Below are positions 33,742 to 41,597 of a stretch of DNA of 47,085 bases, piece by piece; the first letter of the stretch is position 1; each line of letters begins with the position of its first letter. The notes beneath the pieces are model-generated. The model had not been told where the DNA came from, searched no databases, and saw nothing but the letters and a program-made list of their open reading frames with translations. The stretch lies in sequence record SRR31156797_7717. One strand, given 5' to 3'. The position numbers were made by a program, and so were the translations under genes.

Positions 33742-34497
33742 ATGGATATGTTGACTGTAGGCGTTACTGCTGTCTCATTTGTGCTGAGTTTCATTTTCGC
33801 GCTCGGCGGAGTGGGATCGGCAGTAGTGCTTATCCCCACGCTGACATGGATGGGAGTGCCTTTTAACCTTGCAAGGCCTACCGGCCTTTTTGTCAACGCT
33901 GTCAGCATGCTTGGAGCGACCTATTCTAATATTAAGGAAAAACGCCTTGATTTAAAATTGGGCATTCCTATTGTGCTGGCTTCTATCGTCATGGCTCCGG
34001 TAGGGGCTTGGATCGGTCATTTTTTGCCGCTGAAGTTTTTGATGATATTGTTTACTTGCTTCCTGTGTTTTTCCGGGACAATGATGCTGTTTTTTAAGGC
34101 ATCAAAGTATAAGGGCCAGTTTCGAGAGGACCGTCCGTTTGGTGGCCCTTTTCTGGTCGGCGTTTTGGCGGGATTAATTTCTGGCCTACTTGGAGTTGGC
34201 GGCGGGGGAGTTATTTCCCCGCTGATGATTATGCAGGGATTTAATCCTAAAAAGGTGGCAACTGTAACCGCTTTTGCAGTTCCTTTTTCATCCATCACCG
34301 CTTTTGCGGCTTATGCTATAATGGGGTCGGTTTCCATCAAGCTGTTGATTTTTGCCGGACTGGCTGCCTGGGGGGGCGGTTATCTCGGCACAAAGCTCAT
34401 GCATGCGCGGATGAAGCCTGCTACTGTTAAAAAAATTCTCGGCGGGGTGCTTATTCTGCTGAGTATAAAACTGTTGTGGTCTGTTGTTTTGAATTAA
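33742..34497 (+). CDS. Sulfite exporter TauE/SafE family protein
   Basis: GGVGSA..IP and SGLLGVGGGGVISP repeats; about 8 TMs. Confidence 0.9.
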   Translation: MDMLTVGVTAVSFVLSFIFALGGVGSAVVLIPTLTWMGVPFNLARPTGLFVNAVSMLGATYSNIKEKRLDLKLGIPIVLASIVMAPVGAWIGHFLPLKFLMILFTCFLCFSGTMMLFFKASKYKGQFREDRPFGGPFLVGVLAGLISGLLGVGGGGVISPLMIMQGFNPKKVATVTAFAVPFSSITAFAAYAIMGSVSIKLLIFAGLAAWGGGYLGTKLMHARMKPATVKKILGGVLILLSIKLLWSVVLN

Positions 34498-34530: not shown

Positions 34531-34564
34531 TCCTCCTCGATTTTGATCGGGGAGGATTTTTTTT
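34531..34564 (+). terminator. Intrinsic terminator
   Basis: TCCTCCTCGAT-TTTG-ATCGGGGAGGA-T8. Confidence 0.85.
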
Positions 34565-34588: not shown

Positions 34589-34622
34589 GGGCGGACTTGA
34601 GTCCTCTGATTCAGGTCCGCCC
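34589..34622 (+). promoter_or_regulatory. 15-bp leader hairpin upstream of the phage-like operon
   Basis: GGGCGGACTTGAGTC-CTCT-GATTCAGGTCCGCCC, two G.U pairs on the + strand, no U tract. Confidence 0.55.
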
Positions 34623-34657: not shown

Positions 34658-34864
34658 ATGAAAGAAATCAAGGTCGAAATGCTCGCTGCGCTCTATCCGC
34701 TTGAGACGCGGCGAACTATCAAAAATTATGCAGCTTTTATTCAGGAACATCCTGACTGGCTGGAAACCGGAAACTCGCTTCTCGATTATAAGCGGCACAA
34801 GGTAAATCCTATTTACTCCGGTTCAGTCAGGGTCGGTAGAAGCGGAGTTGAGGTTGCGCAATGA
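34658..34864 (+). CDS. Small hypothetical protein, first gene of the phage-like operon
   Basis: AGGAGG RBS; ATGA overlap with the holin. Confidence 0.65.
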   Translation: MKEIKVEMLAALYPLETRRTIKNYAAFIQEHPDWLETGNSLLDYKRHKVNPIYSGSVRVGRSGVEVAQ

Positions 34865-35250
34865 TCGGTTCAATTCTCGATCTCGGGTCGACCATTATCG
34901 ACAAAATCTGGCCCGATGCCGGAGAACGCGAGAAAGCCAAGCTGCGGCTTATGGAAATGCAGAACCGGGGCGAGCTGGCTGATCTTGAAGCAAGGGTTAA
35001 GATTATGCTGGCGGAGATGTCCGGAAATTGGTTGCAGCGTTCATGGCGGCCGATCCTGATGCTGACCATCGTTGCTATCGTGGCTAACAACTACCTTTTT
35101 TATCCTTATCTTGCTTTGTTCTGGGCCAAGGCACCGCATTTGGAATTGCCTGTGCAACTTTGGTCGCTGATGGAATTGGGACTCGGGGGATACGTGGTTG
35201 GGCGCAGTGCTGAGAAGGTTGCGAAAACATGGAGGGGAAAAAATGGTTGA
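34861..35250 (+). CDS. 3TM holin (gene-transfer-release holin family)
   Basis: IIDKIWPD...KAKL.L, WLQRSWRP, LGLGGYVVGRSAEK motifs. Confidence 0.85.
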   Translation: MIGSILDLGSTIIDKIWPDAGEREKAKLRLMEMQNRGELADLEARVKIMLAEMSGNWLQRSWRPILMLTIVAIVANNYLFYPYLALFWAKAPHLELPVQLWSLMELGLGGYVVGRSAEKVAKTWRGKNG

Positions 35251-35452
35251 GGAAAGAAGTGAATTGCAGGATCTGCTTATCCGCATTGATGAACGGGTGA
35301 AGTCCATTCAGGAAGATATATCGGAAATTAATGGTGCACGTCGTTGCCATACCCACGCGGAGAAGTTCCGCAATCTTGAAAGGGCTGTCTGGGGGACCGC
35401 TGCAGTTGTGACGGGAGTCGCGGGCCGAGTCGCTTACGAGGCATTCAAATGA
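35243..35452 (+). CDS. Small coiled-coil protein with C-terminal hydrophobic segment (XhlA-like lysis accessory)
   Basis: GGAGG RBS before ATG 35243; LIRIDERVKSI coiled coil; ATGA overlap with next gene. Confidence 0.6.
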   Translation: MVEERSELQDLLIRIDERVKSIQEDISEINGARRCHTHAEKFRNLERAVWGTAAVVTGVAGRVAYEAFK

Positions 35453-35673
35453 TCGGGACGGTAATACTGACCGAGGTTTCGGCATGGATTGGTGGAATGT
35501 TTGACGGCGAACGCTGCGAGCGTTGCGGCCGCACGGATGTGCTGGAGCCATTTAAAATTGAAGTTTTCTTCGGTGGGCGAAAGATCGTTCGAGAAGCACA
35601 ACTTTGCCATAAGTGTATGAAAAGAGCGGAAGCGGAAATAGCCTGCATGCCGGAAAATAAACGGATTCACTAA
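35449..35673 (+). CDS. Small Zn-ribbon-like protein
   Basis: CERC and CHKC pairs; translational coupling. Confidence 0.55.
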   Translation: MIGTVILTEVSAWIGGMFDGERCERCGRTDVLEPFKIEVFFGGRKIVREAQLCHKCMKRAEAEIACMPENKRIH

Positions 35674-35724
35674 TAATGATCGTCTTTGCTCGGCTTGAAA
35701 AAGGGATTTCTATTTCAATAACAT

Positions 35725-35795
35725 GGGAGTCTAGAGGGTCGCGGGCCTTCTTGCCGCCGGAGGCGAAATCACCTGACAATAGCGCGAAGCGCATC
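35725..35795. repeat. REP-like element inside the phage-like operon
   Basis: GGGAGTCTAGAGGG..CCTTCT-TGCCGCCGGAGGC..GCGCGAAGCGC; same architecture as 18056-18146. Confidence 0.55.
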
Positions 35796-35818
35796 AACTA
35801 AATTTTTTGGAGAAAACA

Positions 35819-36097
35819 GTGACGAAAAATGAAGTCATTAAAAAGCAGAAAGAGGAGCTGGACCGGTTCCGGGAGGTATTCGCATTGGCGGTTGAGGGCG
35901 ATGATTCTGACATGGTCAAGGATTTGAAAACCAAGCTGGACATTATGCATAAGCGGCACGACATGGAACGCAAGGCTTGGGGCATCGGGGATGTGAAAAA
36001 GGAGGCAGCAGCAAAAGGCACGAAGAAGAGCCGCGCTATAAGCCCGCAATTGAGGGAGAAACTCGATGAAGTTTATGGATCTGGACAGTGCAAATAG
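35819..36097 (+). CDS. Putative short terminase small subunit
   Basis: GGAG RBS before GTG 35819; helical, ERKAWGI motif; overlaps the TerL start. Confidence 0.55.
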   Translation: MTKNEVIKKQKEELDRFREVFALAVEGDDSDMVKDLKTKLDIMHKRHDMERKAWGIGDVKKEAAAKGTKKSRAISPQLREKLDEVYGSGQCK

Positions 36098-37607
36098 ATG
36101 GTACGCCGAAATCCTGCGCGAAGCTGAACATCAGAAACAACCGCTGCTGGTCATGGCTGAACTGGGCCGGAACGACCTTTTTTTTCTGCTGACCAGATTG
36201 TTGGGCCGTGCCGACGCTAATAACGAATGGGTCTTTGAACGTTGCCGGGAAGTGCAAACAAACCCGGACGGACACCTCGATCTTTGGTCCCGTGAGCACT
36301 ACAAGTCGACCATCATTACCTTTGCCCTGACCGTGCAGGATATTTTGCGCGACCCGGAAGTTACTGTGGGAATTTTCAGCCACACTCGGCCTGTTGCTAA
36401 AGGGTTCCTGCGCCAGATCAAGCAGGAATTCGAGCGCAATGAGCTGCTTAAGCAATGCTATCCGGATGTGCTCTGGGCTAATCCCAAAAAGGATTCCCCC
36501 AAGTGGTCGGAAGAGGATGGGATTATTGTCAAACGCAAATCCAATCCCAAGGAAGCAACAGTGGAAGCATGGGGATTGGTGGATGGTCAGCCCACAGGTA
36601 AACATTTTTCCCGGCTTATCTATGATGATGTGGTGACTCGCGAGTCGGTTTCTTCGCCGGATATGATTTTCAAGACCACCGAGGCCTGGGCATTGTCTAT
36701 CAACTTAGGCACCCGCGAAGGCATCAAGCGTTATATCGGTACCCGCTATCATTTTAACGATACCTATCGGGAAATGATGAAGCGTGAGGCTGCGCTCCCC
36801 CGGATTTATCCGGCAACTGCGGATGGAACTATGGAAGGCCAGCCCGTACTGTTGACCAAGGAACAATTGCAGATCAAACGGCGGGAGATGGGACCTTATG
36901 TGTTCGGTTGCCAGATGATGCAGGATCCGCGTGCAGATGATGTGCAAGGCTTCCGTGAAGAATGGCTCAGTCGTTGGGACCCGCGTGACAGCAGTGGCAA
37001 AACGCGTTGGGAGCAGTTCAATCGCTATTTGCTGGTTGACCCGGCAAGCGAGAAAAAAACCGGCAGTGACTACACGGTCATGCTGGTTGTCGGGCTGGGT
37101 TCGGATCGCAATTACTATCTTATCGACGGTATCCGCGATCGACTTAATCTTACCGAGCGGGCACGGGCCTTGTTCCGGTTGCATCGGGCTTATTCACCGC
37201 TTGCTGTGGGATACGAGAAATACGGGCAGCAGGCCGATGTGGAGCACATGCAATATGTCATGAATGAGCAAAATTACCGCTTTTCTATTGATCCGCTGGG
37301 CGGGAATGTGCCCAAAACTGACCGTATTCGTAAGTTGGTCCCCCTATTTGAGCAATCCCGATTCTACCTGCCATGGCAGGCCAGGTTCATGGATCATCAA
37401 GGCCGTGAGCGCGACCTTGTGCGTGAATTTATCAATGATGAATATCTCGCTTTTCCCGTTTCTGCCCATGATGACATGCTAGATTGCATGGCCCGTATTT
37501 TGGACCCCGCACTGGGGACTGTCTTCCCTAAGCAGCAGCACGTGCTGGAGCAACAGGAAGAAATGCAGGGCCTTATGGATTATGACATTTTTACAGGAGC
37601 GGGCTGA
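36066..37607 (+). CDS. Phage terminase large subunit
   Basis: Walker-A-like REHYKST, GKHFSRLIYDD (Walker B), IGTRYH, nuclease LVDPA, GYE, AHDDMLD. Confidence 0.92.
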   Translation: MKFMDLDSANRWYAEILREAEHQKQPLLVMAELGRNDLFFLLTRLLGRADANNEWVFERCREVQTNPDGHLDLWSREHYKSTIITFALTVQDILRDPEVTVGIFSHTRPVAKGFLRQIKQEFERNELLKQCYPDVLWANPKKDSPKWSEEDGIIVKRKSNPKEATVEAWGLVDGQPTGKHFSRLIYDDVVTRESVSSPDMIFKTTEAWALSINLGTREGIKRYIGTRYHFNDTYREMMKREAALPRIYPATADGTMEGQPVLLTKEQLQIKRREMGPYVFGCQMMQDPRADDVQGFREEWLSRWDPRDSSGKTRWEQFNRYLLVDPASEKKTGSDYTVMLVVGLGSDRNYYLIDGIRDRLNLTERARALFRLHRAYSPLAVGYEKYGQQADVEHMQYVMNEQNYRFSIDPLGGNVPKTDRIRKLVPLFEQSRFYLPWQARFMDHQGRERDLVREFINDEYLAFPVSAHDDMLDCMARILDPALGTVFPKQQHVLEQQEEMQGLMDYDIFTGAG

Positions 37608-38194
37608 TGTACGGATTTGAAGTGAGTGGAGGTTTTACCTTCTATAAATTCAGGGATTTTGACGGCATAGAATCTCTGAGCGACGGACATATGCGTTGGG
37701 TTTGGGAGACTATGCGCAAGGCCGGACAGCTTCAGGTGATTTTTTATGACGGAACCGTGGAAGGTTTCAACGATTTTCAAAAGCTTGTGCGTCGTGAAGA
37801 TCAGCATTTCTTTTTCGGATTCAAGGATCAGCAGCCCGCTGGATTGTTCTGGTTGAACGCTTTTACCCCGAAATCATGCTTTGTGCATGTTGCTATCATG
37901 CCTAGATTTCACGGCAAGGGCACCTTGCAGATGGGGCGCGGAGTGTTGGGACATTTGTTGTCAGTCACTGACGTAGCAGGTGGGTATATATTTGATTGTA
38001 TAAAGGGAATGATACCGATGATTAATCCGCTGGCCTGCCGTATGGCGGAGCGGTCCGGTTTTAAAAAAGTGGGAATTCTTTCACAGGCTGCCTATCTGGC
38101 GGCTGAAGAGAAAAGTGTGGATGCCGCAATTTTTTGTGCGGTTAGGAATAAGGACAAGAAGTCCGCGATGATAATTTCTAAACAAGGAGAATGA
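37607..38194 (+). CDS. GNAT-fold phage protein
   Basis: AGLFWL...FVHVAIMPRFHGKG...N..A.RMAERSGF..VG GNAT pattern; TGATG coupling. Confidence 0.65.
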   Translation: MYGFEVSGGFTFYKFRDFDGIESLSDGHMRWVWETMRKAGQLQVIFYDGTVEGFNDFQKLVRREDQHFFFGFKDQQPAGLFWLNAFTPKSCFVHVAIMPRFHGKGTLQMGRGVLGHLLSVTDVAGGYIFDCIKGMIPMINPLACRMAERSGFKKVGILSQAAYLAAEEKSVDAAIFCAVRNKDKKSAMIISKQGE

Positions 38195-38457
38195 TTATGG
38201 GAGGCGGAGGAGGAAAAGGACCTACTTCACCAGTTTCACCGCCACCGGCACCCCCGGTGGCCCCGGCACCTGAACCACCCAAGATGGAAGCTGTCACCAA
38301 AAGTGAGCAGGAACTGAAAGCTAAGAAAATGCGCGAGATGGAGCGTATGAAAAAAGGACGTAGCTCTACCTTATTGACCAGTGGGCAGGGTGATACCGGG
38401 CAGTTGGCAACAGTGACGCAAAATTTACAGGCTCAGAAGACCAAGCTCGGTCAGTAG
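38191..38457 (+). CDS. Small Pro-rich virion-type protein
   Basis: AGGAG RBS; MGGGGG-Pro-rich N-terminus; GRSSTLLT..G...KTKLGQ as in podoviral pre-portal proteins. Confidence 0.65.
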   Translation: MIMGGGGGKGPTSPVSPPPAPPVAPAPEPPKMEAVTKSEQELKAKKMREMERMKKGRSSTLLTSGQGDTGQLATVTQNLQAQKTKLGQ

Positions 38458-38467
38458 GGGGGAGCTC

Positions 38468-38947
38468 ATGCCTAACTATTACAGGCCCGATCTGCCTGCA
38501 GCAAAGGATGGTCAATCCAACGTCTGGTTTAACAACGGGTCACCCGGTTTTAATGGTTACTACAAGTGGCACCGCTACACATACGGCACCAATCCTTCTT
38601 CAAATAACGAAGGTCTTAATGCTCCGGCTGATTGGCGTGTGCCAGCTGATTGGAGTTTCTCGGAGAAGACCGGGCATTGGTACACCCCCGGAGAAATGCA
38701 GAATGCCGGGTACAGCAAAATAGACGATGAATGGCTACATCCAAACGATATCCGTCAGCGAGAAGTAGATCGTCAGAATGCTGAATTTAAAGCCAAGGTT
38801 GCTCTTCGCAAGGAAACCGACGGGCGTATGCGCAAGGTGCATGCCCTCGGGCGTAAAAAGACCATCCTGACCGGACCGGACGGGGTAGCAGGTAAGGCTA
38901 AAGTCAGTAAGGAAATTTTAACCCGTTCCAAAGGAGTAATGAAATGA
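38468..38947 (+). CDS. Hypothetical phage protein, Trp/Asn-rich N-terminus and GRKKTILT C-terminal motif
   Basis: GGAG RBS; shares its C-terminal motif with the preceding gene. Confidence 0.65.
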   Translation: MPNYYRPDLPAAKDGQSNVWFNNGSPGFNGYYKWHRYTYGTNPSSNNEGLNAPADWRVPADWSFSEKTGHWYTPGEMQNAGYSKIDDEWLHPNDIRQREVDRQNAEFKAKVALRKETDGRMRKVHALGRKKTILTGPDGVAGKAKVSKEILTRSKGVMK

Positions 38948-39060
38948 GTGAGCACCGTTGTCCAGTCTGCCGCAGGCTTTTGATGAAAGGTAAAGTAATT
39001 GAAGTGCAAGTTAAGTGTCCTAAATGCAAAAAACTTGTGAGGATTGTTGGAGATAATTAA
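38944..39060 (+). CDS. 38-aa Mu Com-like zinc-finger protein (absent from ORF track)
   Basis: Manual translation MSEHRCPVCRRLLMKGKVIEVQVKCPKCKKLVRIVGDN; AGGAG RBS, ATGA overlap; exactly fills the gap before the portal. Confidence 0.8.
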   Translation: MSEHRCPVCRRLLMKGKVIEVQVKCPKCKKLVRIVGDN

Positions 39061-39063
39061 AAC

Positions 39064-40731
39064 ATGAGACAGATTGAAAATAATAAATATCTTAGCCGAT
39101 TGCAGAGTCTGCGTCAGGAGCGCAACAGCTGGGAATCGCATTGGCAGGAGATCAGCGATTATATCCTGCCCCGTAAGGGAGTTTATGACGGACATCGTCC
39201 TAATGACGGGCGTATAAAGTCTGGCAAGATTATTGATTCCACGGCAACAAGGGCATTACGCATTCTTGCGGCGGGCTTACAGGGCGGATTGACTTCCCCG
39301 GCAAGACCGTGGTTCAGGTTGGGTATTTCAGACCGCGAGCTTGCACGGCATAAATCCGTGCGCGAGTGGATTTCCAAGGTGGAAAATACCATGTATCGCG
39401 CGCTGGCCCGCAGTAATTTTTATTCCTGTATCCATTCTCTTTATACGGAACTGGCCGGGTTCGGTACAGGGATTCTTTATTGCGAACCGGATGATGAACG
39501 TGGAATTCGTTTCCGCACCCTTACTGCCGGGGAATATAGTCTTGCCACGGACGCACAAGGGCGGGTGGATACGGTCTATCGTGAATTCAAGATGACCGCC
39601 CGTCAGTTGGAAAAACGATTTGGCAAGCAGAACCTTCCGTCTACAGTGCATACCAGCCTTAACGTTAACCGTGATCATTGGTTTGATGTGCTGCATGTAG
39701 TCCAGCCGCGTGATGAGTTTAATGTGGAGTGTATGGATGCCATGAACATGCCTTTTGAGTCGGTTTTTCTGCTCAATGGCAGGGGGGGGCATGTGCTTTC
39801 CGAAAGCGGATTTATGGAAAATCCGTACATGGCTCCACGCTGGGATACTTCCGCAATGGATGTTTACGGGCGTTCTCCGGCTATGGATGTGTTGGCTGAC
39901 GTGAAGATGCTTATGGAGATGAGTAAAAGCCAGATTCAGGCCGTGCATTTGACCTTGCGTCCGCCCATGAAGGTGCCTTCCATGTATTCAAGGCGATTGA
40001 ATCTGCTGCCCGGTGGACAGAACCCGGTGGAGCAGAACCAGCAGGATTCGGTATCCCCGCTCTATCAGGTCCGTCCCGATCTGGCCGGGGTTAGTAACAA
40101 GATTCAGGATGTGCGAACTGCGGTCAGGGAAGGTTTTTATAACGATATTTTCATGATGATGGCCGGGACCAATCGTAGGACCATCACTGCAGCTGAAGTT
40201 GCCGAACGGCACGAGGAAAAACTTATTCAGCTTGGTCCGGTTATCGAGCGCCAGCACACGGAACTTCTTGATCCGCTAATTGACAGGGTCTTCGGGATAT
40301 TGATGCGTTTCGGACAACTGCCGGAAGCTCCGTCGATTCTTGAGGGGGCGGATATCAAGATTGATTATATTTCCGTGCTGGCACAGGCCCAGAAAATGGT
40401 AGGTACCCAGTCTATTCAGTCGTTGGCTCAGTTTGTAGGTAGTCTGGCACAGATTAATCCCGAAGTGTTGGATAAGGTGGACATGGACCGGGCTGTGGAT
40501 GATTATGCGGAGCTGATCGGGGTTCCAAACGGCATCGTCCGTTCCGGGGATGAAGTGGAGAAGTTCAGGAATATGCGTAAGGATATGTTAATGAAGCAGC
40601 AGCAATTGCAGCAGAATTTACAGGCTGCATCCATGGGGGCGGGCATAGTTAAAGACCTTTCACATTCCGGATTGAATTCGGTCCAGATGCAGGGCGTGGT
40701 CAGTCAGGCGGGGCAGATGATGCAACAATAG
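39064..40731 (+). CDS. Podovirus-type portal (head-to-tail connector) protein
   Basis: WQEISDYILP, IDSTA..A...LAAGL..GLTSPARPWF, PRW....VYGRSP, TA.EVAER.EEKL..LGPV.ER. Confidence 0.93.
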   Translation: MRQIENNKYLSRLQSLRQERNSWESHWQEISDYILPRKGVYDGHRPNDGRIKSGKIIDSTATRALRILAAGLQGGLTSPARPWFRLGISDRELARHKSVREWISKVENTMYRALARSNFYSCIHSLYTELAGFGTGILYCEPDDERGIRFRTLTAGEYSLATDAQGRVDTVYREFKMTARQLEKRFGKQNLPSTVHTSLNVNRDHWFDVLHVVQPRDEFNVECMDAMNMPFESVFLLNGRGGHVLSESGFMENPYMAPRWDTSAMDVYGRSPAMDVLADVKMLMEMSKSQIQAVHLTLRPPMKVPSMYSRRLNLLPGGQNPVEQNQQDSVSPLYQVRPDLAGVSNKIQDVRTAVREGFYNDIFMMMAGTNRRTITAAEVAERHEEKLIQLGPVIERQHTELLDPLIDRVFGILMRFGQLPEAPSILEGADIKIDYISVLAQAQKMVGTQSIQSLAQFVGSLAQINPEVLDKVDMDRAVDDYAELIGVPNGIVRSGDEVEKFRNMRKDMLMKQQQLQQNLQAASMGAGIVKDLSHSGLNSVQMQGVVSQAGQMMQQ

Positions 40732-40736
40732 TTTTT

Positions 40737-40767
40737 AAAAGCGGAGTCATTATGACTCCGCTTTTTT
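40737..40767 (+). terminator. Intrinsic terminator ending the phage-like operon
   Basis: AAAAGCGGAGTCAT-T-ATGACTCCGC-T6. Confidence 0.9.
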
Positions 40768-40910: not shown

Positions 40911-41597
40911 ATGCTGGTTTTGACTGATTTAACGCGATTTAATGATAGCGATAATGTTTGTATGGCCTTGCTGGATGAGGATGACTGCACTTGTTATCGT
41001 CCCTTGCCTTATGAAAATCTGGATTTTGTCGAGTTCAGGAACATCCGCCCGGGAATAATTGTCTCTGCTGATGTTGTTCCTCATGAAAGCGCCAATTGTC
41101 CTCATGTGGAGGATTGTACTTTTGAAAATGATGTATGGCTTGATTGCGTTGATGAGGACACATTCAAGGAATTGCTGGAACGCAGTGCTGTAGATTCAAT
41201 GGAAGAAGCCTTTGAAGGAATTGTTACACCCAAGAATAGGTGTGTGCCTGCTGAATCTCCCTGTGCTCATTCTATCAGAACTATTAGGATTGATCCCAAA
41301 TCCGTAAGCGTCTCAGTGGTTAATTCCGGTGAAAATGTAAAGCTGCGGCTCGGTTTTATAGACAAGGCTGGTGAAAAGTTCCGCCATACCCCCATTGCGG
41401 ATTTGTGTTTTCATCGTATGGCAATGGAATATGTGCAACAGGGCAGGCTGGATGAATTGGAAGCCCTGCTCGCCGGAGGGGAGGAAGTGTACATCCGTGC
41501 GGGACTCAGCAGGTTGTACAAAAGCAAAAATGGCAAACAGGGCTTCTGGATGCAGGCTAATGGGGTGTATATTTTCCCCGGTTACTATCAGGGCTAG
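40911..41597 (+). CDS. Dual OB-fold-like protein
   Basis: LTDLTRF..VCMA..RP..PHVED..LRL.F..PIAD..YIRAGLSR..W.Q.NGV pattern recalled for dual-OB proteins. Confidence 0.6.
   Translation: MLVLTDLTRFNDSDNVCMALLDEDDCTCYRPLPYENLDFVEFRNIRPGIIVSADVVPHESANCPHVEDCTFENDVWLDCVDEDTFKELLERSAVDSMEEAFEGIVTPKNRCVPAESPCAHSIRTIRIDPKSVSVSVVNSGENVKLRLGFIDKAGEKFRHTPIADLCFHRMAMEYVQQGRLDELEALLAGGEEVYIRAGLSRLYKSKNGKQGFWMQANGVYIFPGYYQG

Follow-up and report, generated by a model that had tools for sequence, protein, structure and literature searches.

The 47,085-nucleotide stretch of DNA from record SRR31156797_7717 (in the following called the window, always at its full length) carries on its plus strand a compact operon of phage-type genes, which lies between host-type genes and comprises a holin, the large terminase (TerL) and a portal protein. 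It is highly probable that this block is one part of a phage-derived gene set that is split over several loci, belongs to the host and is kept under selection. We further think it likely that it is the packaging/lysis locus of an element that descends from a podovirus of the BPP-1/epsilon15 type, belongs to the host and occupies several loci, namely a 'viriform' of Maridesulfovibrio that resembles a gene transfer agent (GTA) and also transfers genes. The case goes beyond gene content and rests on comparative evidence: purifying selection at host-like rates, co-divergence with the host in a phylogeny identical to that of RpoB, partner loci that occur as scattered single copies, and a palindromic cis element that these loci share. 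The names of the closest protein and locus matches indicate that the host of the window is a Maridesulfovibrio and not Desulfovibrio desulfuricans.

Organization of the packaging and lysis block

Ten open reading frames (ORFs) form the block at 34658-40731, and Pfam and PHROG profile searches gave clear identities for three of them, the holin, TerL and the portal. The features are the following, with protein lengths in amino acids (aa) and with dN/dS, the ratio of nonsynonymous to synonymous substitution rates, from pairwise Nei-Gojobori estimates.

34531-34556, plus strand: hairpin terminating TauE, the host gene to the left (33742-34497), dG -17.9 kcal/mol, z -4.98, T-run after the stem; recovered by a second scan as well; left border of the module
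34590-34621, plus strand: palindrome GGCGGACyTGAGT-N6-AyTCAGGTCCGCC, 32 nt, 37 nt 5' of the first ORF
34658-34864, plus strand: orf68, first gene of the operon, 68 aa; in 7/7 orthologous loci; dN/dS 0.03-0.13
34861-35250, plus strand: three-transmembrane holin of the GTA_holin_3TM family; PF11351 E 1.2e-28, phrog_3427 E 3.2e-34; dN/dS 0.02-0.06
35198-35452, plus strand: orf84, 84 aa, coiled coil and C-terminal hydrophobic segment; in 7/7 loci; dN/dS 0.03-0.15
35449-35673, plus strand: accessory Zn-ribbon-like ORF, 74 aa, CxxC...CxxC; phrog_3447 E 4e-5
35807-36097, plus strand: small terminase (TerS)-like protein, 96 aa, by position; 32-nt overlap with the TerL start
36066-37607, plus strand: TerL; phrog_38 E 1.6e-57; single copy in genomes G001-G005; dN/dS 0.03-0.04
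37607-38194, plus strand: GNAT-fold protein, RimL-like by structure model, 195 aa, at the position of bbp24 in BPP-1
38191-38457, plus strand: orf88, small phage-type protein; phrog_831 E 7.8e-9; in 7/7 loci; dN/dS 0.03-0.19
38468-38947, plus strand: orf159, phage-type protein at the position of bbp22 in BPP-1; phrog_831 E 1.4e-5; dN/dS 0.05-0.13
39064-40731, plus strand: portal of the T7 gp8/BPP-1 bbp21 type; PF12236 E 1.7e-196; dN/dS 0.03-0.05; tree congruent with RpoB
40737-40765, plus strand: hairpin terminator that closes the module, 13-bp stem, dG -19.2 kcal/mol, z -7.38, T-run after the stem

The holin scores 100.5 bits against PF11351 (gathering cut-off 24.8) and is full-length, its residues 3-116 lying on positions 1-123 of the 123 in the profile. 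The portal scores 653.8 bits against PF12236, Head-tail_con (gathering cut-off 27), with residues 8-492 aligned to positions 3-489 of the 489 in the profile. The 195-aa protein encoded after TerL gives weak matches by sequence (Acetyltransf_1 E 0.065, below threshold; phrog_651 E 9e-4), and its AlphaFold model (pLDDT 89.9) has RimL as best Foldseek match (1z9u_B, E 3.7e-11, TM-scores 0.73/0.81). As modeled, it has a GNAT acetyltransferase fold, an assignment that concerns the fold. The 96-aa ORF is called TerS-like because of its position 5' of TerL. For orf68 there was no Pfam or PHROG match, and all Pfam matches of orf84 remained below threshold. The latter may be a lysis accessory, to judge from its coiled coil and hydrophobic segment, and its real start probably lies 3' of the listed TTG.

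The sequence-only reading, made earlier from the letters of this DNA, had described an intact phage-type packaging/lysis operon at 34658-40767, mostly translationally coupled and set between two clean terminators, and this description holds, with the holin, TerL and portal recognized by profiles, the GNAT protein by its fold and the TerS-like protein by its position. Neighboring ORFs overlap by 4 nt (orf68/holin), 4 nt (orf84/Zn-ribbon ORF), 32 nt (TerS-like/TerL), 1 nt (TerL/GNAT) and 4 nt (GNAT/orf88); from these coordinates, with overlaps mostly of 1-4 nt, translational coupling of the block genes can be read. The widest spacings inside the block measure 133 nt, 5' of the TerS-like gene, and 116 nt, 5' of the portal gene. 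For each of the two terminator hairpins, an equally good folding was reached in 0 of 200 shuffles. In one respect the earlier description has to be revised, since the zinc finger that it placed after the virion-type genes is in fact the Zn-ribbon-like ORF 5' of the TerS-like gene. This ORF is present in four of the seven orthologous loci (39-77% identity; the count includes the more distant genome G197) and missing from L006, L008 and L055, and with a dN/dS of up to 0.35 it is the sole fast-evolving and dispensable gene of the block. Of the label 'virion-type' that had been given to orf88 and orf159, the phage-type part stands (phrog_831), whereas 'virion' rests only on a PHROG family without assigned function.

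As also claimed earlier, host-type genes lie on both sides. The remaining scanned ORFs of the window encode chemoreceptors, TauE, a rhodanese, an ABC transporter, DUF4198, CstA and other host-type proteins, and no integrase, replication, capsid or tail gene is among them. No tRNA was detected in the window, and a search for att-like direct repeats flanking the block yielded just two short internal chance repeats.

Resemblance to BPP-1-type podoviruses

With the portals of the temperate podoviruses BPP-1, phiV10 and the epsilon15 group, that of the window shares about 40% identity. In BPP-1, the genes follow each other in the order TerS, TerL, GNAT, bbp23, bbp22, portal, two small genes, protease/scaffold, major capsid protein (MCP), bbp16, two tail proteins and internal virion proteins, and the block of the window corresponds to the first half of this order, ending after the portal. 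Together with the genes at the partner loci described below, the likeness to BPP-1 (Rauchvirus) and to phiV10 and epsilon15 (Uetakevirus) extends to an MCP identity of 49-53%, tail protein identities of 30-42% and a common gene order. At the GNAT and TerL positions, the match to BPP-1 is one of order and fold only: no BLAST similarity was found between the GNAT-fold protein and bbp24, nor between TerL and the TerL of BPP-1. The nearest phage match of TerL among 50,697 phage records is only 23-25% identical. Between orf159 and bbp22 there is a short common motif (E 0.002).

An intact BPP-1/epsilon15-like prophage was considered and rejected, as the phage-type genes of the window and of the partner loci are confined to structure, packaging and lysis and are interrupted by host genes, and as no att repeats flank the block. 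Another podoviral prophage is found in genome G002, in three copies with identical match scores; its identity to the element is 33% for the portal and 36% for the tail protein. Its copies contrast with the single-copy element and lie at the following positions.

C1:2743768-2745270: prophage copy in G002
C2:133612-135114: prophage copy in G002
C2:394769-396271: prophage copy in G002

Conservation, selection and co-divergence with the host

A scan of species representatives found the block in the same chromosomal neighborhood in six other Maridesulfovibrio genomes, with 75-85% nucleotide identity, which equals that of the flanks, and every block gene is kept in the orthologous loci except the Zn-ribbon ORF. 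The conserved genes show dN/dS values of about 0.02-0.16 (orf88 up to 0.19), with dS mostly at about 0.5-1.5 in the closer comparisons and saturated against more distant genomes. Eleven flanking host genes have much the same dS and dN/dS values of 0.02-0.14. In a dead prophage, ten ORFs would not have stayed open at such divergence.

In a sample of 201 genomes of the family, the portal is present in 7/7 genomes whose RpoB is at least 87% identical to that of the nearest relative, and a locus search added three further genomes. Portal identity is graded, from 94% down to 69% in named Maridesulfovibrio species and then to about 45-53% in Halodesulfovibrio and other genera. For 13 genomes, the portal and RpoB trees have identical topology, and the MCP tree is congruent for ten genomes. 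When 33 genomes from several genera, which had been chosen by their best portal matches, were compared, 20 of 30 splits were common to portal and RpoB (label shuffles: mean 0.3, maximum 5). The distance matrices of the two proteins correlate with a Mantel rho of 0.62, which was matched in 0 of 2000 permutations, and after removal of the Maridesulfovibrio rows rho is 0.65 (again 0/2000). A portal match of any strength occurs in 128/201 genomes of the family, and in 78/201, by hand count, the portal is at least 38% identical.

The sequence-only reading had itself named patchy occurrence, neutral decay and close identity to intact prophages as signs against domestication, and the comparison gave the opposite in each respect. 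The block is not patchy but present in all close genomes, its genes are under purifying selection, the portal phylogeny equals that of RpoB for 13 genomes, and the best phage matches of portal and TerL are distant.

Dispersed capsid, tail and virion loci

The proposal that the capsid and tail modules of this domesticated block lie elsewhere on the chromosome is borne out by unlinked podoviral clusters in the relatives. In each of the ten Maridesulfovibrio genomes checked, the capsid gene and the tail-nozzle gene are present as single copies. Portal and MCP genes lie 8.5, 10, 10.6, 10.7, 14 and 18 kb apart in six genomes (G013, G126, G158, G197, G081, G005), 276 kb in G003, and 1.0, 1.1 and 1.14 Mb among G001, G002 and G004; the tail locus of G005 is another 104 kb away. 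With loci up to about 1 Mb apart, no podoviral head could carry the whole set, as can be inferred from podoviral head sizes.

The full set comprises the packaging/lysis locus, a capsid locus, a tail locus and a separate locus for an internal virion protein. Its layout is best illustrated by G001, the portal of which is 94% identical to that of the window. There, the capsid locus contains a small phrog_528 protein, a protease/scaffold protein (phrog_458), the MCP and a bbp16-like protein, with a GGDEF gene upstream and Usp and histidine kinase genes downstream. The tail locus encodes the tail-tube/nozzle proteins tail A and tail B together with two internal virion proteins and a tail fiber of 899 aa, and is followed by more host genes. 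A further single-copy gene, found in 10/10 genomes, encodes a protein of 470-524 aa whose N-terminal part matches the bbp11-type internal virion family phrog_1044. The partner loci scanned showed neither an integrase nor a repressor nor a replication gene.

Where portal and capsid genes are close, host genes are interposed as well. In G197, the 10 kb between them encode a binding protein, a histidine kinase, orf228, an antiporter, ThiC, HlyIII and a hydroxylase. The gene named orf228 also borders the block in the window, and its membership in the element is uncertain.

40911-41597, plus strand: orf228, 228 aa; directly 3' of the portal terminator in 7/7 orthologous loci; dN/dS 0.05-0.07

It has no Pfam or PHROG match, its AlphaFold model is poor (pLDDT 53.7), and an ESM Atlas lead points to the dual-OB family DuOB (PF22557, score 0.97) without Pfam support.

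For the organism of the window, the sequencing run X1 is informative, which is the only run with the complete window sequence and probably its source sample. Contigs of this run cover the capsid module of G001 (2,594 nt with 348 differences) and its tail A (1,012 nt with 128 differences), both at about 87% identity to G001 and at an equal depth of about 230. It follows that the organism of the window has capsid and tail modules on other contigs, outside the span of the window, that is, outside the 34 kb upstream and 6 kb downstream of the packaging block. As X1 may be the window's own source, these contigs tell of the organism's own gene content and are not independent support. The run gave no cover over the Usp gene of G001 and parts of its histidine kinase gene, which is no evidence of their absence.

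In other genera, the protease/scaffold, capsid and tail genes follow directly 3' of the portal. In G173, a sodium:alanine symporter is interposed between TerL-GNAT and the portal (L056 6032-7399), and in G064, G115 and G149 TerL lies 42-44 kb from the portal. These arrangements show that the break-up of the cluster is not limited to Maridesulfovibrio.

A palindrome shared by the loci

The comparison of the regions upstream of three G001 loci with the window revealed one palindrome of about 32 nt, a feature that the earlier reading did not contain and that stands 5' of every module. The window has one match to it, and 100 shuffles of the window had none. In the 4.7 Mb of G001, the exact pattern occurs at four sites genome-wide, 40-100 nt 5' of the packaging, capsid, tail and tail-fiber modules, and a reversed-pattern control gave no site. 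Relaxed patterns, or copies with at most two core substitutions, are found 5' of every module examined in G002, G003, G004, G005, G158 and G197, and the palindrome also precedes the bbp11-like internal-virion-protein gene. In loci from other genera (1.16 Mb scanned), none was found.

The palindrome is a candidate operator of a regulon and would be bound by a protein. The central base of the half-site varies independently, so that many copies have mismatched 'stems', and three copies in G005 (L008:5628, L069:15532, L071:10218) have the same derived, asymmetric right arm and thus represent a concerted change. Both observations are more easily explained by a DNA site to which a protein binds, and which co-evolves with this regulator, than by an RNA hairpin.

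Further copies lie 5' of genes that are not part of the particle kit:

G001 L117:4119-5591, plus strand: RHS/YD-repeat gene (Pfam RHS_repeat, TEN_YD-shell), about 60-100 nt 3' of the palindrome
G001 L122:508-2382, minus strand: RHS/YD-repeat gene of the same type and spacing
G004 L120:4109-5563, plus strand: RHS/YD-repeat gene of the same type and spacing
G001 L121:1383-1850, minus strand: regulator gene of the phage CII/CP76 family, PF06892 E 2.3e-17; palindrome copy at L121:2501-2530

The position of these copies suggests that the RHS/YD-repeat genes are co-regulated with the element. The CII/CP76-type gene has a close ortholog in 5/10 genomes of the genus plus one partial copy, and a paralog (about 42% identical) occurs in 10/10 genomes, 10-65 kb from the internal-virion-protein locus. 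A CII/CP76-family protein is a candidate for the master regulator, which we regard as a lead only.

The TerS-like protein and TerL

The TerS-like protein of the window and its relatives have 89-96 aa (about 93 in the relatives), with 35 invariant columns among 22 sequences, and no match to any TerS or DNA-binding family in Pfam or PHROG. Its predicted complex with TerL has a score of 0.70, compared with 0.00 for the highest-scoring of three controls, where the mark applied to this score is reached by 51 of 78 solved complexes and by 2 of 108 mismatched pairs. Contact agreement between runs was at least 68%, at a partner pLDDT of 66-68. The predicted contact involves the invariant C-terminal helix of the TerS-like protein (residues 76-90), which is placed on residues 1-37 of TerL. 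The model thus supports the view that the TerS-like protein binds TerL.

Proposed function and alternative explanations

A scheme can be proposed in which a regulator would bind the common palindrome 5' of each locus and thereby switch on the loci jointly. Procapsids would then assemble on the portal, and the TerS-like protein would recruit TerL through its C-terminal helix for headful packaging of host DNA. After attachment of the tails, the holin would help to release the particles, which would inject their DNA into neighboring cells. Particle formation, non-specific packaging and gene transfer are what we infer from the gene set, and a GTA function is plausible but unproven.

Several observations weigh against this interpretation. 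The choice of the 33 genomes by their best portal matches favors congruence, and the portal tree departs from the RpoB tree at the deep nodes. In 50 of the 128 portal-positive family genomes, the portals are only 24-37% identical and probably those of ordinary prophages. With the TerL query used, no TerL was found in G073 and G061, and an endolysin was not identified at any locus. The match of the bbp11-like protein covers only positions 57-156 of the 900-position phrog_1044 profile. The layout in the window's organism is deduced from relatives and from the contigs of one run that is possibly its own source. The occurrence of the palindrome 5' of the RHS/YD-repeat and CII/CP76-type genes means that the regulon is wider than the particle kit. 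Finally, one symmetric double change of the palindrome in G002 is compatible with a hairpin, and the site might accordingly act in RNA, a reading that is less likely.

The main rival that remains is a particle domesticated for another use, such as killing or toxin delivery, or lysis and DNA release, with RHS proteins as cargo or companions. The palindrome copies 5' of the two RHS/YD-repeat genes of G001 and the one of G004, as well as the place of the holin as second gene of the packaging operon, would fit such a use. TerL, the TerS-like protein and the portal are however selected as strongly as the capsid genes, which suggests that DNA packaging is kept, a function that tailocin-like killers do not need; moreover, the positions of the RHS loci differ between G001/G004 and G003/G005. 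We therefore think that this use is unlikely.

The viriform interpretation is opposed far more weakly by the explanation that the block is what remains of a decaying BPP-1-like prophage whose capsid and tail genes were deleted, and that it has no present function. Such a remnant would fit a gene order that equals the left end of the morphogenesis cluster of BPP-1 and breaks off behind the portal, a window without capsid or tail genes, and a Zn-ribbon ORF that varies and is missing from some loci. It would not leave the other genes intact in 7/7 orthologous loci with dN/dS of 0.02-0.16 at a dS of about 1, nor a topology equal to that of RpoB, intact single capsid and tail copies elsewhere in 10/10 genomes and a common palindrome, so that we consider this explanation very improbable.

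A phage satellite (a phage-inducible chromosomal island, PICI, or a capsid-forming PICI-like element) or a site-specific prophage that re-integrates at one locus can be dismissed as the most improbable of the three, because the small size of the block and its possession of terminase and portal genes, as in capsid-forming satellites, and the frequency of related podoviral clusters in the family (the portal matches in 128/201 genomes) are outweighed by a dS equal to that of the flanking host genes, a single copy, a congruent phylogeny, the set's own tail genes with the same palindrome elsewhere, and the finding of no integrase, primase/replication gene or att repeat. Taken together, genes that are single-copy, selected, inherited with the host, scattered and commonly tagged leave very little probability for a virus, a satellite or a decaying remnant.

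A bolder extension of the viriform interpretation would be that all Desulfovibrionaceae carry an ancient, vertically inherited GTA of podovirus type, which is the basis of a Dd1-like particle, and that Maridesulfovibrio has placed it as a regulon of at least five loci under a genus-specific palindromic operator and recruited RHS proteins and a CII-like regulator to it. We put this forward tentatively and with more doubt than conviction. If it were true, the palindrome would serve as a genome-wide address label, including for parts that are beyond homology search.

Already within the genus, the palindrome offers a simple means to list all components of the system. The identity of the particle genes, the signal and the regulator that would act through the palindrome, and the role of the TerS-like protein in non-specific packaging are questions that can be tested in cultivable marine sulfate reducers, and the question is raised what share such transfer has in shaping the genomes of sulfate reducers in sediments, at corrosion sites and in guts. 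Reviews state that GTAs outside the Alphaproteobacteria have been studied only cursorily and that a GTA is difficult to distinguish from a dead prophage. In a D. piger study, all strains were noted to have a prophage group that contains few tail genes. The literature searched holds no description of the split element, of co-divergence in the Desulfovibrionaceae or of the palindrome, a search that did not include the supplements of PMC5701242, PMC6006170 and PMC12724379, which may list related loci.

Comparison with known systems

From the BPP-1/epsilon15-type phages, to which its structural proteins are related, the element differs in that no integrase, repressor, replication or tropism-switching genes are present at the scanned loci, and in that host genes are interposed, the genes are spread over up to 1.1 Mb and inheritance follows the host. 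Its TerL is in addition unrelated to that of BPP-1.

VSH-1 of Brachyspira (Brachygtaviriformidae) is a GTA that, like the element, is found outside the Alphaproteobacteria. Its genes reportedly lie at more than one locus. It differs in its unrelated host phylum and phage ancestry, and it is inducible by DNA damage according to PMC11409702.

RcGTA of Rhodobacter capsulatus (Rhodogtaviriformidae) consists, as does the element, of vertically inherited, phage-derived structural genes under purifying selection, and has a holin of the same Pfam family, PF11351. It is siphovirus-like and descends from an unrelated phage ancestor, and its head-tail genes form one 15-kb cluster, whereas the core genes of the element are dispersed. 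RcGTA is regulated by CtrA and GafA. No counterpart of these was identified in the element, in which a single palindrome marks every locus. A multi-locus 'genome' is common to both, as tail fibers, head spikes and lysis genes of RcGTA are found at ectopic sites, according to PMC6854486. A small TerS whose C-terminal part binds TerL is described for RcGTA, and such binding is predicted for the TerS-like protein of the element. More generally, GTA small terminases, including the predicted one of Dd1, are described as small and without a DNA-binding domain.

The third system, Dd1 of D. desulfuricans, comes from the same bacterial family as the element and from another genus. Dd1 is reportedly a short-tailed particle type, said to have been described as a GTA by Rapp and Wall in 1987. 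To our knowledge, it has never been tied to genes by experiment. In the literature it is listed as one of five recognized GTA types. The sequence-only reading knew of no mapping of the Dd1 genes, which is out of date, since a putative D. desulfuricans island, Ddes_0702-0725, appears in print as one block of 24 genes (PMC5701242), as does a predicted TerS, Ddes_0720 (ACL48628), of 125 aa, directly 5' of TerL and reportedly without a DNA-binding domain (PMC6854486 and PMC11841831). Named D. desulfuricans entries are not among the listed matches to the portal, the TerS-like protein and a TerL from gut Desulfovibrio. By description, the TerS-like protein of the element, which is small, overlaps TerL and has no match to a DNA-binding family, resembles this predicted TerS of Dd1. 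The element extends over at least four loci, whereas the putative Dd1 island, as described in PMC5701242, forms one block.

With GTAs and viriforms as a class, the Maridesulfovibrio element has in common that no integrase or replication gene was found at its loci, that these loci lie 8 kb to 1.14 Mb apart, and that its head, tail and packaging genes are phage-derived, vertically inherited and under purifying selection.

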